Origin: an uncultured delta proteobacterium
Lineage (GTDB): Bacteria; Desulfobacterota; Desulfomonilia; Desulfomonilales; Desulfomonilaceae
Assembly (NCBI GenBank): GCA_963789265.1
Contig: CAWBKB010000007.1
Coordinates: 416,001-480,000 of the forward strand
DNA: 64,000 bases
Direction of reading: 5' to 3'
This document shows, piece by piece, positions 36,001 to 39,000 of this stretch. Numbering within the stretch: position 1 is the stretch's first letter; the number at the start of each line of letters is the position of its first letter. Position numbers: made by a program.

Positions 36001-39000
36001 CAATTACTGAATTTGAAAGATGTGTCGCACTGAATTCCGGTTATGTTGAAGCTTGGTACAATATGGGACAAATTTATATGCTGAAACAGAAGGACTTTTC
36101 TCGAGCCCTCCACTGCTTTGACCGGGCTGCAGCAATCCGCCCGGATTACATAGGCGCACACCACCAGCGTGGGGTCGCGTACGAGCTACTTGGCAACCCT
36201 GTGAGAGCGCTGAAATGCTGGGAAAGAACGTTGGAATTGGACCCTGAGAACAAGCAGGCCAGAGAGAATATCAAGAGATTGGGCGACTCCATTGCAAACC
36301 AGCCTTGCCGGTGAGCGCCCTTGAAAGGACTGATTGATGAAACTAAAAACCTCCCCATGTGAGCTCGAGCGCTTAATGACCTGGGATGACTCCTTCTCTT
36401 TTCGGTGTCATCCGGCTATTGACTGCTTCAACTCATGTTGCAAAGACGTGACTATATTTCTTACCTCCCTAGATGTCATCAGGCTTAGAAAAGCGCTGGA
36501 GATATCTTCCACCAATTTTCTCGAGACACATACCCATCGGCTGATCTCTCAGACCACGGGTCTGCCCGCTGTAGCCCTCAAAATGAGTCAGGATGAGGCG
36601 AAAACCTGTCCGTTTGTGAGCGCGACAGGTTGCTCCGTTTACAACGATCGGCCTTATTCCTGCCGACTCTACCCCCTGGACACCGAGCAAGGAGTGGAAT
36701 ATAAATTCGTTGTGGACGAAGGCGTGTGCCACGGGCTAAGAGAATCCCGAGAATGGACGGTCGAGACGTGGAGAAAGGATCAGGGCCTTTATGCGTACGA
36801 CGATCTCGATCACCAGCTCAAGGATGTAATGGCCGCAGATCAGGTTTTGGAAAGCAAGATTCAGGATCCGAGAATGCAGGACATGTGTCTCATGACTTTG
36901 TACGATCCTGACCGGTTTCGAGAGTTCATATTTAAGAGCAGCTTTCTTCAGAAGTTCCACGTGGATGATGACATAATGGAGAAGATAAGGGACGACGACG
37001 TCGCTCTTCTGTATTTTGCAAGCCAGTGGCTCCGTTTTGCTCTATTTGGCCAAAAAGGATTCCTGAAAATCGATCGCGATTACCTTGAACTTAAGAAACG
37101 AGAAGTTCTGGGCGGATGAAGGCAGGAAAGATGAAACGATTTGCATGGTTCGTAGTGGCGCTCCTACTAAGCGTGATGGTTGGAAGCGCACTGGCCGCGG
37201 AATCGGCCATCGACAGACACATTAAAGATCTTAAAAGTGATAAGCCCGAAGTTCGAGCCAAGGCGGCTTTCGACCTGGGATGCGGCTGACACAAGTCGCC
37301 GAGGGCGGTTCCGCCTCTCATTGAAGCTCTGAAAGACCCGGACGCCAAAGTGCGCAGCGCCGCTACCGAATCACTCGGCTTTTTCTCGAGTCAGGCTTCA
37401 CAGATAATCCCCAAGGTGCTGGAACGCTTATCCGATGATAAAGTAGAAGTTCGACGAGCGGCAATTCAGTCGCTAGGACGACTCGGCAAGGGGAACCACA
37501 ACGTGGAGCAGGCCCTCCGCAAGTTCCTTGACGATCCGGACACGCTTACCAAGCTCAACACTATAATCGCACTCGCATCAGTGGGTAAAGTGGATGATTC
37601 GGTTATTCCCACGTTGCTCACGGCCATTAGCAATAAAGATCGGACAACTGCCAAAGCCGCCGGGCGTGTGCTGAGTCAGCTAGCTCCCGCCAAGCCGGAC
37701 AAGGTTCTACCCGGACTTACCGAGTTGCTGGACAAGAACCAGGAGCCTGGGGTCTCTAACGCATTGAAAGTATTGCGGTTTATGAAGGCGGCGGGATCAC
37801 CGGCTTTGCCCAAGATATCCACCTTGTATGATAAGGCGGACGCTCATGTTCGTTTGGAAATTTTGGGAGCTCTTTCCTCCATTGACAGTAAAGGGGATCA
37901 GGCCCTCCCTGTGCTCATTAAGGCGCTCAAGGCCCACGATATCATGGTTAAGAAAGAAGCGCTCCTCGGGGTTATACGATATAGATCCAAAGCGGATCTG
38001 TTTCTGGAACCTCTGGCCGAATCCATGAAGACAGGAGAATTGGAGAATCGCCTGTTGGCCATCGGTATCGTCCGGGGGCTGGGGCAACAAGGCTTAAAGG
38101 CGGTGCCGACGTTGATAGCCCTGACAGACGACCCGAATGTGCGTGTTCGCTCGGCCGCGATTGGCGCTCTTGCCGGTTTCAGGCCTGCACCGCCGGAAGT
38201 CCTCGAAACACTCGGCCGCAAGCTTAAAGACTTTCAGCCCGCTGTGAGGCTGGCTGCCGTGGGCGCGCTACGACAAAACGGCTACAAATATCCTGAAAAG
38301 GTGGCTGGACTATTGGAATCAGCACTGAAAGACGAAAAGAATGAGTTCACTCGACGTGCAATGGCGGCAACACTAGCCGGCATCAGGAAGGTGAAGCCGA
38401 GTACCGCTGCTGCACAATCGACGACGTCGGAAAACGTGAAGCCGAGTACCAACACCGACAAGGCGAAATCGGCCAAGTCGGAAAACTTGAAGCCGGGCAC
38501 CGCTACGGCAGAATCATCGAAATCGGACAAGGATAATCCCAAACAGGTGACCAAATAGCCTAACCTTTTCGCAGAACCGGCTAACGGATCCCAGAAGGCG
38601 AGATGGAAAGTGGGAAGCGGAAGCCGATACTCTCCGCTGCCTTTGGTCGCGGGCATTCATAGCCAAAACATTCTTGGCACTTGAAAATCTACGTTGTAGA
38701 ATCTAATCACTTCATCCAGACTGATGCGAAAAACGTGACCCGCGCGCTGTGCTTTGGTCCGAAAGTTACTATTGCGGAACAGAAGTCGCAGGAGTGGAGG
38801 GATTCGAGGTACATCTTTATCGAGAACATTAAAGCAAACGATACAGAAGCGCCGATCAGCTCGTATCTTGTTCCAAAAATGATTGACATTGATGGTTATA
38901 AAGGCTGGATGTCGCTGTCGACAAAGGAGCGACGGAATAGCGTCATCTTTTATTATTGTCGCCGGTCGCAAGTCGTTCACTAGGCGGACTGCACCGTGAT

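Follow-up and report, generated by a model that had tools for sequence, protein, structure and literature searches.

A window of 64,000 nucleotides from the genome of an uncultured member of the Desulfomonilaceae, a family of sulfate reducers (contig CAWBKB010000007.1, positions 416,001 to 480,000) was analysed, and one of its genes very probably encodes an exported HEAT-repeat selenoprotein (HEAT-Sec), in which UGA58 would be decoded as selenocysteine (Sec) with the help of a downstream hairpin and SelB. The case for the recoding, the RNA element, the Sec machinery and the protein architecture was built by comparison. The survey's finding had already proposed a selenoprotein; that reading is now stronger by four points: the Sec machinery of the genome, a freeze of codon choice exactly over the hairpin, three forms with Cys at the Sec site, and Sec-bearing paralogues in sulfur clusters. 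Within Pfam, NCBIfam and the literature searched, HEAT-Sec is almost certainly a selenoprotein family without earlier description. The features are listed in Table 1.

Table 1. Features of the HEAT-Sec locus, in positions of the window; the names aprA and aprB are presumptive.
Feature	Position	Strand	Basis or remark
aprA	32488..34362	-	ORF translation
aprB, divergent from the operon	34383..34826	-	ORF translation; intergenic gap 519 bp
Protein with N-terminal SEC-C motif and TPR, 322 aa, first operon gene	35346..36314	+	
CxxCxxCC (PF03692) protein, 261 aa, operon gene directly upstream of HEAT-Sec	36334..37119	+	
HEAT-repeat selenoprotein gene (predicted)	37116..38558	+	480 codons and TAG stop; one in-frame TGA
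Predicted Sec-type signal peptide, residues 1-27	37116..37196	+	read from sequence
All-alpha HEAT solenoid, about residues 29-428	37200..38399	+	Pfam, AlphaFold model, Foldseek
Cys56-Gly57-Sec58 motif (TGC GGC TGA)	37281..37289	+	end of helix A and loop, first HEAT repeat
UGA codon 58, predicted to be read as Sec	37287..37289	+	conservation, codon analysis
SECIS-like hairpin GAGGGCG-GUUC-CGCC(U)CUC	37301..37319	+	folding, codon freeze; encodes R-A-V-P-P-L
Disordered low-complexity C-terminal tail, residues 429-480	38400..38555	+	repeated ENxKP[SG]T; pLDDT <50

Translation confirmed the survey's finding: the interval is a single gene of 480 codons whose only in-frame TGA is codon 58. The start codon of this gene shares bases with the TGA that ends the preceding one (ATGA). 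The signal peptide, which had been placed upstream of the TGA, is indeed predicted there from the sequence: an n-region (KAGKMKR) is followed by a hydrophobic core and by A-L-A in front of the predicted cleavage site, and signal-like N-termini were recognised in 48 of 50 family members with a crude hydropathy rule. The protein falls among the HEAT repeat proteins (Pfam PF13646, PF02985), with a HEAT_2 match at E 1e-51 (173.6 bits against a gathering threshold of 27.7). The AlphaFold model is all-alpha and contains no strand (pLDDT 88.9), with U58 in the loop of residues 57-61; Cys56 and Sec58, at this first inter-helix loop, are the sole Cys and Sec residues of the protein. Foldseek searches with the model returned generic solenoids only (alphaRep, PP2A A subunit, importin-alpha), and the structure search therefore gave no functional lead. 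A thioredoxin-fold CxxU/UxxC selenoprotein was ruled out, since the model is strand-free and the C-x-U motif follows a helix.

Conservation of the site was assessed in 70 Desulfomonilaceae genomes, 65 of which contained a match (E<=1e-20). Matches were present in all 36 high-quality genomes and in 25 of 26 genera; the five genomes that gave none are 73-82% complete. By our own count from the listing, 79 of 86 match rows contained the TGA. Five of the other seven were partial and ended short of residue 58, and two (G049:C82 and G062:C80) carried Cys at the site. When the homologous position was inspected in 50 extracted loci (L010-L059; identity down to 27%), it was TGA in 47 and Cys in three, in keeping with the earlier claim that the TGA is kept across the family. 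In a quick tree, the Cys forms (L050, L056 and L057, one of which reads G-C-G-C) are nested in three separate clades of Sec sequences. The C-G-U motif had been called invariant: U/C58 is, while its middle residue may be G, S, A or T and its Cys belongs to the apr-linked subfamily only. Likewise, from the longer list of residues reported as invariant, U/C58 held across the 50-sequence alignment, in which R80 and D107 were the only other invariant columns. The conserved residues flanking the TGA vary synonymously (relative codon entropy 0.82-0.99).

Relatives outside the family were sought with several queries. Residues 1-110, used against a large protein database, retrieved generic HEAT proteins with neither Cys nor Sec at the site (4 of 22 matches examined); Cys-for-Sec homologues are rare, and none was found among these matches. 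A profile search of a 401-genome sample of the phylum gave four partial matches outside the family, none with a TGA, Cys or Sec in the loop, and a scan of genome contigs with a single paralogue as query gave generic HEAT proteins only. With the queries used, the HEAT-Sec family was found only in the Desulfomonilaceae, as the survey had concluded. A reassigned genetic code was rejected because UGA terminates the gene just upstream. An assembly error was rejected as well, the site being kept across 65 genomes.

The hairpin reported earlier was recovered, at a corrected distance: it starts 11 nt past the A of the UGA (base 15 counted from the U), not 14 nt, and its loop GGUU occupies bases 21-24. 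All 40 distinct sequences folded to a hairpin centred on G22-U23, with a mean MFE of -11.2 kcal/mol, against -5.5 at 99 further HEAT sites of the A[VI] type (AVPxL-like) in the same genes. Codon choice is frozen over the element: the relative codon entropy of the six hairpin codons was 0.145, compared with 0.871 +/- 0.095 for 78 conserved columns elsewhere (minimum 0.56), and AGG (29/29), CCG (30/30) and CTC (30/30) were used without exception. After synonymous recoding, 21 of 26 apr-type sequences were more stable than 95% of the recoded versions, as were 3 of 14 paralogues, the stems of which have a different sequence and shifted registers. Some centred hairpin was also obtained at 44 of the 99 ordinary HEAT sites; the amino-acid motif itself therefore favours pairing. 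The survey's own caveat that the hairpin shows no compensatory changes was borne out by a formal test: fixed-register covariation in a 45-sequence alignment of the UGA hairpin was 0.098 against a shuffle mean of 0.106, with 471 of 500 shuffles as high. Realignment with a covariance model did not raise covariation above the shuffles, and the paralogues were not re-registered by the model. Rfam gave no match at E<=1 between positions 34800 and 38700, and a promoter and terminator scan gave chance-level results only.

The genome of the window encodes a tRNA-Sec (71 bits, anticodon tca) as well as SelA, SelB and SelD, the gene for the last itself containing one in-frame TGA. Other selenoprotein genes are present, including an FdhA-like gene with a GGUC loop at bases 22-25 (own count).

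HEAT-Sec is the last of three operon genes, and both partners, as described by the survey, were recovered in the 30 top loci: the CxxCxxCC gene lies directly 5' of the HEAT-Sec gene in 30 of 30, and the SEC-C/TPR gene was found in 27, the remaining three being cut off by contig ends. The divergent orientation relative to aprBA was likewise seen, with aprB in the window itself and in all three loci for which 3 kb of upstream sequence was retrieved. The names aprB and aprA are presumptive and come from our own reading of the ORF translations. Both operon partners look cytoplasmic, whereas HEAT-Sec looks exported.

Paralogues of HEAT-Sec (27-42% identity) keep the Sec and lack the Cys of the C-x-U motif; most have a lone Sec (G-G-U), with no second ligand nearby. 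By this comparison, the Cys is specific to the apr-linked subfamily and the predicted Sec is the family-wide residue. At 13 of 17 non-apr loci the HEAT-Sec gene is preceded by a gene for a membrane rhodanese and/or a MauE/DoxX protein, and three HEAT-Sec copies lie against a dsrMKJOP-like set. In five genomes (G043, G057, G064, G065 and G040) a G-G-U type paralogue adjoins a homologue of MccSep, a periplasmic multihaem polysulfide-reductase selenoenzyme with Sec at a haem site (PDB 9wt8/9wt9; PMC13510729). These homologues (E about 4e-67 to 9wt8/9wt9) have five CxxCH motifs and the same AGHxIPDG-U site (AGHRIPDG-U). In most of the 41 genomes that carry MccSep, no HEAT paralogue adjoins it, and a MccSep search of the window's own genome gave no match. 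The paralogue clusters also hold ArsR-type regulators and DGC-domain, thioredoxin-like and putative Fe-S proteins.

The following course of events is proposed. With the ribosome at UGA58, the hairpin would recruit SelB and Sec-tRNA(Sec), Sec would be inserted and translation would carry on across the HEAT solenoid. Guided by its N-terminal signal peptide, the protein would then cross the inner membrane, so that the mature protein would be a periplasmic all-alpha scaffold. Gene neighbourhood offers a tentative role for Sec58, which could perhaps serve as nucleophile in a relay of sulfur or redox equivalents in the periplasm. In such a relay, either sulfane sulfur would bind to Sec58 or a selenenylsulfide would form there, to be resolved by Cys56 in the apr-linked type; in the Cys-less paralogues, resolving the Sec adduct would fall to a partner, for instance the membrane rhodanese or the MauE/DoxX protein, and the solenoid might dock a partner enzyme. 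A bolder and rather doubtful proposal is that HEAT-Sec proteins are selenium-dependent adaptors or sulfur carriers of a new periplasmic class, and supply a link in the periplasm that dissimilatory sulfur metabolism of the Desulfomonilaceae has so far been missing. Sulfane sulfur or redox equivalents would be accepted by the bare Sec on the protein-binding solenoid and handed over to the MccSep polysulfide reductase, to DsrMKJOP and, via the membrane, to the Qmo/APS reductase branch.

Two other readings of the UGA were considered. Were it a true stop, the locus would encode a 57-residue exported peptide and a cytoplasmic 402-residue HEAT protein, or would be a conserved pseudogene. Translation table 11 yields exactly these two ORFs (37116-37289, and one starting at GTG 37350), and 43 of 43 close database relatives are annotated in truncated form (290-392 aa). 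This is nevertheless extremely improbable: residues 59-78, between the TGA and that GTG (codon 79), are among the best-conserved of the protein and show synonymous change outside the hairpin, and no in-frame start codon occurs in this interval of the window gene. In addition, the TGA stays at one column with Cys as its sole replacement, the frozen codons mark an RNA element directly after it, and the two flanks of a pseudogene would not remain open in 65 genomes. Read-through by other means, for example by a near-cognate tRNA (Trp, Cys or Arg) or at a programmed leaky stop, without SelB or Sec, would accommodate the negative covariation test. It is still highly improbable, as Cys was the only replacement on three independent occasions, the hairpin has fdhF-type spacing and a GGUY loop, the genome has the full Sec machinery along with other selenoprotein genes, and UGA serves as an ordinary stop just upstream.

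Other alternatives accept a genuine selenoprotein and concern its role. C-x-C-like motifs often bind metals, and Cys56 and Sec58 might bind a metal (e.g. Ni, Cu, Hg, or Mo/W in cofactor delivery) or an Fe-S centre in a periplasmic metal chaperone or sensor. The G-C-G-C form, together with the ArsR-type regulators and the DGC-domain, thioredoxin-like and putative Fe-S proteins of the paralogue clusters, fits such a role, which we consider unlikely given the lone Sec of most paralogues and the constant rhodanese and MauE/DoxX neighbours, joined by MccSep in five genomes, that point to sulfur chemistry. Rhodanese-type proteins can carry selenium, and a role in its periplasmic capture, storage or delivery together with a rhodanese was weighed. 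Judging by the ext gene names, ExtH and ExtI are presumably encoded beside MccSep in Geobacter. The works cited by the MccSep paper (PMC13510729) cover ExtH, a rhodanese-like lipoprotein, and ExtI, a selenite porin, which would suit selenium handling. However, no rhodanese adjoins the apr-linked copy, which nearly every genome has, and one Sec in 480 residues would be a poor store; this role is very unlikely.

To our knowledge, nearly all bacterial selenoproteins are either redox enzymes or small proteins of a thioredoxin-like or rhodanese-like kind. In HEAT-Sec, the predicted Sec would sit on an exported scaffold that binds proteins and is not catalytic; essentially all Desulfomonilaceae genomes keep this scaffold, and its gene has been duplicated into several sulfur-respiration gene clusters. 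If this is true, the range of protein types that use selenium widens, dozens of database entries truncated as 'HEAT repeat protein' are to be corrected, and a concrete periplasmic candidate partner is available for MccSep, DsrMKJOP and the APS reductase branch. Since Desulfomonile tiedjei can be cultured, the prediction is directly testable.

HEAT-Sec was compared with known systems. It resembles E. coli FdhH (fdhF) in having an in-frame UGA, a coding-sequence hairpin 11 nt downstream and the selA, selB, selC and selD genes; the apical loop is one base off (GGUY at bases 21-24, against GGUC at 22-25 in fdhF). The differences are that HEAT-Sec is a repeat scaffold without a cofactor motif rather than an oxidoreductase fold, and that its hairpin is short (7 pairs, one bulged U) and falls in the codons for the conserved HEAT-repeat residues RAVPPL. 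With MccSep (PMC13510729), HEAT-Sec would share export and a tie to sulfur respiration in the Desulfobacterota, but the two have no sequence or fold relation and HEAT-Sec has no haem motif. A rhodanese-fold C-x-U protein likewise has one residue between Cys and Sec and is linked to sulfur transfer, but its fold is alpha/beta, not a HEAT solenoid, and the two are not homologous. Cys-Sec and C-x-C redox shuttles are found in the GCUG tail of thioredoxin reductase and the C-G-C arm of Erv2. These place a neighbouring Cys/Sec pair on a flexible exposed segment, as HEAT-Sec may do. The HEAT-Sec chain has no flavin or thioredoxin-fold partner domain, and the analogy is a lead only.

No selenoprotein model of NCBIfam or Pfam matched HEAT-Sec, in agreement with the survey's finding that it fits no known family model, and the NCBIfam CpcE/F and NblB models scored 37-51 bits, far below their cut-offs of 220-600 (CpcE 37 against 330). 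The term 'HEAT' is absent from PMC13188914, PMC9312934, PMC12013277 and bioRxiv 2022.07.06.499078, and 'repeat' is absent from the first two. The repeats are of the same type as in PBS-lyase-type HEAT proteins (Pfam HEAT_2/HEAT_PBS; CpcE/F, NblB, YibA and the designed alphaRep), and the HEAT-Sec profile matched alphaRep chains (E 1e-112) and CpcE (4e-12). Unlike these proteins, HEAT-Sec is predicted to be exported, and its first loop, which reads LG-x-x-x-D-x-RAV in ordinary members, is two residues longer and carries the C-x-U.

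The HEAT-repeat gene comprises 480 codons, contains a single in-frame TGA (codon 58), read as selenocysteine (Sec, U), and ends at TAG. The start codon shares the sequence ATGA with the TGA stop of the gene before it; because TGA ends that gene, the organism uses UGA as an ordinary stop. Under translation table 11 the gene is split into ORFs of 57 and 402 codons, the first start of the second being GTG (37350). Conservation of the TGA was assessed by a six-frame search of 70 Desulfomonilaceae genomes: matches at E<=1e-20 were obtained in 65/70, among them all 36 genomes with a completeness of 90% or more, and 25 of the 26 genera were represented; the five genomes without a match were 73-82% complete. 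By our own count a TGA was present in 79 of the 86 rows listed; the other seven were five partial matches that stop short of residue 58 and two with Cys at the site. In 50 excised loci (L010-L059), the homologous column of codon 58 held TGA in 47 (down to 27% identity) and Cys in three; as the family genomes are mutually related, these and the other statistics given here overstate independence. Only U/C58, R80 and D107 were invariant in the alignment of these 50 sequences. One orthologue (L016, genome G029) carried an internal run of unrelated residues, likely a local assembly frameshift, and in genome G040 two contigs (C18:14030-15299, C47:170310-171619) each carry two separate pieces matching the gene; both cases may reflect faulty assembly or copies in decay.

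Synonymous codons were used freely on both sides of the TGA (30 orthologues), with a relative codon entropy of 0.82-0.99 for the conserved A, A, L, G and C before it and A, L, K, D and K after the hairpin described below. In the window gene no start codon lies in frame after the TGA until codon 79 is reached; the strongly conserved residues 59-78 can therefore be made only by read-through. The 43 closest proteins in a large database (43-81% identity, 290-392 residues, 60-78% query cover), called 'HEAT repeat protein' where named, are the truncated downstream ORF of the HEAT-Sec gene. The Cys-for-Sec forms read LGQTC (L050), VGTCC (L056) and KGCGC (L057), and each lay within a different Sec clade of a maximum-likelihood tree (SH-aLRT 100, 92 and 90; quick search only, deep branches weak). 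The window genome encodes SelA, SelB, SelD and a tRNA-Sec (71 bits; ARAGORN anticodon tca), along with an FdhA-like selenoprotein. Taking all the evidence together, Sec insertion at UGA58 is very probably genuine.

By comparison, UGA58 is very probably recoded in the SelB-dependent way, under the direction of the hairpin that follows. A hairpin presenting G22-U23 in its loop (U of UGA = 1) was formed by 40/40 distinct family sequences, with a mean folding energy of -11.2 kcal/mol (30-nt window), against -5.5 kcal/mol (sd 3.05) at 99 other A[VI]-type (AVPxL-like) HEAT-repeat sites of the same genes, of which 22 reached -7.8. The HEAT motif itself favours pairing, since some centred hairpin was formed at 44/99 control sites. 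The clearest signal of an RNA element is the frozen codon choice: the six hairpin codons (R-A-V-P-P-L) had a relative codon entropy of 0.145, compared with 0.871 +/- 0.095 (lowest 0.56) for 78 other conserved columns, and AGG (29/29), CCG (30/30) and CTC (30/30) were fixed. When compared with synonymous recodings that follow the codon usage of the family, 24/40 sequences fell within the most stable 5% (21/26 of the apr-linked type, whose operon is divergent from aprBA, and 3/14 paralogues). Covariation in the fixed register scored 0.098 versus a shuffled mean of 0.106 (471/500 shuffles as high), and realignment of the hairpin with a covariance model left this unchanged, with no signal above shuffles. 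The paralogue stems differ (GAGAUC/GAUCUC, GGGUGC/GCGCCC, GGGAGC/GCUCCU, CGGUC/GACCG), all closing on the invariant C20 and presenting G22 in loops of 4-6 bases; given the three registers used, these differences are only suggestive of support for the hairpin. In E. coli fdhF (database record; UGA = codon 140) GGUC occupies bases 22-25, as it does, by our own count, in the fdhF-like loop of the window genome's FdhA-like gene, whereas the HEAT gene has GGUU at bases 21-24.

Pfam detected HEAT repeats only in the product (HEAT_2, E 1e-51). To judge by the sequence, the first 27 residues form a putative Sec-type signal peptide, in which KAGKMKR is followed by a hydrophobic core and then by A-L-A ahead of A28, and 48/50 family members passed a crude hydropathy rule for a signal-like N-terminus, the two misses probably being due to the chosen start codon. 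An AlphaFold model built on the 50-sequence alignment (pLDDT 88.9, pTM 0.79) was helical throughout residues 4-425, the first helix (4-38) taking in the signal peptide, and was followed by a tail whose length is poorly conserved among orthologues. Cys56, the sole Cys of the mature window protein, ends helix 44-56 in the model, and Sec58 lies within loop 57-61. Ordinary exported HEAT proteins of other Desulfobacterota read LG-RLKDV-RAVEPL at this site, and the HEAT-Sec loop is two residues longer. Foldseek returned generic solenoids only (alphaRep, PP2A A subunit, importin-alpha). By comparison, the protein is a predicted exported solenoid with Sec presented in its first loop.

The recoding mechanism is that already known from bacteria. 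Among the selenoprotein families that Pfam or NCBIfam models, none includes this protein, and full-text searches of the literature on selenoproteins, Desulfomonile and aprBA/qmoABC gave no description of a HEAT-repeat selenoprotein. 'HEAT' does not occur in the main text of two selenoprotein reviews (PMC13188914, PMC9312934), the deep-Sep paper (PMC12013277) or the Haft preprint (10.1101/2022.07.06.499078), nor does 'repeat' in the main text of the two reviews; the supplements of all four may list more candidates. We rate HEAT-Sec as a putative selenoprotein family that is new and is built on a repeat scaffold.

Coordinates of the features discussed (unprefixed positions refer to the window; G000 is the window's own genome, L-numbers are excised loci)
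Feature	Position	Strand	Remark
aprA	32488-34362	-	divergent from operon; name read from translation
QmoA-like and QmoB-like ORFs			beyond aprA; names read from translation
aprB	34383-34826	-	divergent from operon; name read from translation
SEC-C-motif/TPR gene	35346-36314	+	same strand as HEAT gene
CxxCxxCC gene (PF03692)	36334-37119	+	same strand as HEAT gene
HEAT gene	37116-38558	+	
In-frame TGA	37287-37289	+	
Hairpin GAGGGCG-GUUC-CGCC(U)CUC	37301-37319	+	11 bases after UGA
Tail, residues 429-480	38400-38555	+	predicted disordered, low-complexity; repeated ENVKPST/ENLKPGT units
134-aa ORF	38657-39061	-	downstream of HEAT gene; conserved in near relatives
GyrB/ParE-like and GyrA/ParC-like pair	39568-43910	-	beyond 134-aa ORF; read from translations only
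SelD gene (L069)	G000:C7:193442-194362	-	one in-frame TGA, TQASG-U-AAKL; itself a selenoprotein
FdhA-like gene	G000:C1 near 2104744		Sec in CARL-U-HAPTV
MauE/DoxX genes	L040:5180-5710; L053:2457-2912	-; +	just upstream of paralogues
Five-haem cytochrome genes	L040:1336-2547; L042:1717-2586; L045:1769-2746; L046:4353-5243	-; -; -; +	split by TGA at AGHRIPDG-U; MccSep homologues
NarI-like to NrfD run (G045)	L054:4823-7201 with L123:664-3284	-; -	convergent to HEAT-Sec paralogue
baeRF-like genes	L048:5753-6997; L049:5827-7029; L051:5529-6677; L052:391-1545; L053:16-702; L054:404-1558	-; -; -; +; +; +	

The window genome carries the apr-linked copy only, and no paralogue. In this type (LGC[GSAT]U-NKPA-RAVPPL) the CxxCxxCC gene was directly upstream in 30/30 top loci, the SEC-C/TPR gene was seen in 27/30 (the three misses being contig ends) and a divergent aprB was present in 3/3 loci examined with 3 kb of flank. 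The usual downstream neighbour across the family is a GyrB-like gene; for the 134-aa ORF of the window no Pfam or NCBIfam match was found. The DNA pattern (UGA plus hairpin) retrieved 38 stretches from the genomes of 185,579 species, all encoding the apr-linked motif, under record titles of Desulfomonilaceae, Desulfomonile, Desulfomonilales or older or generic names (delta proteobacterium, Syntrophaceae, one 'Pseudomonadota'). In a 401-genome phylum sample, matches to the window protein (E<=1e-15) were confined to the eight genomes of its own family, and the family profile gave four partial matches outside it, whose loops contain neither TGA nor Cys nor Sec; absence in such samples means 'not found in genomes searched'. 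Relatives of the CxxCxxCC protein (37-47% identity) were present in 179 of the 401 Desulfobacterota genomes of the sample, frequently in tandem pairs, and the gene adjoined aprA in 2 of 12 loci examined outside the family (L150 and L151, of L148-L159). The CxxCxxCC gene may therefore be the real apr-linked gene, its product a general, uncharacterised APS reductase companion, and the HEAT gene a lineage-specific addition.

The paralogues (27-42% identity) keep Sec in a site reading G-G-U, A-G-U, K-G-U or S-Q-U, two of them with Cys two places earlier (C-G-G-U). The non-apr loci number 17 (14 Sec paralogues, three Cys forms), and in 13 of these the HEAT gene came after a gene for a membrane-anchored rhodanese (12 loci), for a MauE/DoxX membrane protein (10 loci) or for both. 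The four partner rhodaneses inspected have a membrane anchor at the N-terminus and a loop reading C-Y-G-P-E-C-D, and both MauE/DoxX proteins inspected carry D-C-G-C-F, with the same C-G-C spacing as C-G-U of the apr-linked protein. Other genes often nearby encode DGC-domain, thioredoxin-like, DnaJ-domain, ArsR and putative Fe-S proteins. The next gene in G043, G057, G064, G065 and G040 encodes a five-haem cytochrome whose ORF ends at TGA (KAGHRIPDG-U). Read through, the G043 copy (L040) matched MccSep, a polysulfide-reductase selenoenzyme of solved structure (PDB 9wt8/9wt9; PMC13510729), at E about 4e-67, with the Sec sites aligned. MccSep homologues were present in 41/70 family genomes, and almost all had a single TGA. 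A ferredoxin-like and NrfD pair abuts a HEAT-Sec copy in G036, G043 and G045, with a tri-haem ORF also in G043. The run in G045 (NarI-like, HdrD-like, a 138-residue protein with three CxxCH, ferredoxin-like, NrfD) we take to be dsrMKJOP, from Pfam hits and the known gene order of that set.

We tentatively propose that Sec58 might act as nucleophile in a sulfur or redox relay of the periplasm, on the basis of three independent sulfur-respiration neighbourhoods and the known chemistry of Cys-Sec and C-x-C shuttles. Attack by Sec58 on polysulfide, thiosulfate or a protein persulfide, or its exchange with a disulfide, would give a Se-S bond; this would be resolved by Cys56 in the apr-linked type and by rhodanese or MauE/DoxX cysteines in the types without the Cys, and a partner enzyme would dock on the HEAT surface. 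The neighbourhood argument is weakened by the HEAT paralogue lying beside MccSep in only 5 of the 41 MccSep-bearing genomes, and by the window's own genome, where no MccSep match was found. A weak point for the relay itself is that both operon partners of the window gene are without a signal peptide; they look cytoplasmic. The wide spread of the CxxCxxCC family is another weak point. SecA is known to carry a SEC-C motif in its tail, which prompts the speculative idea that the TPR protein might help export. Compared with a relay, metal binding by the HEAT-Sec protein appears improbable, and a role in selenium handling very improbable.

At 6/7 loci with HEAT-Sec paralogues of the third subfamily, a gene of baeRF family 3/7 (bacterial archaeo-eukaryotic release-factor-like families; E down to 1e-48) lay a few genes away, a curious position near a UGA-recoded gene.
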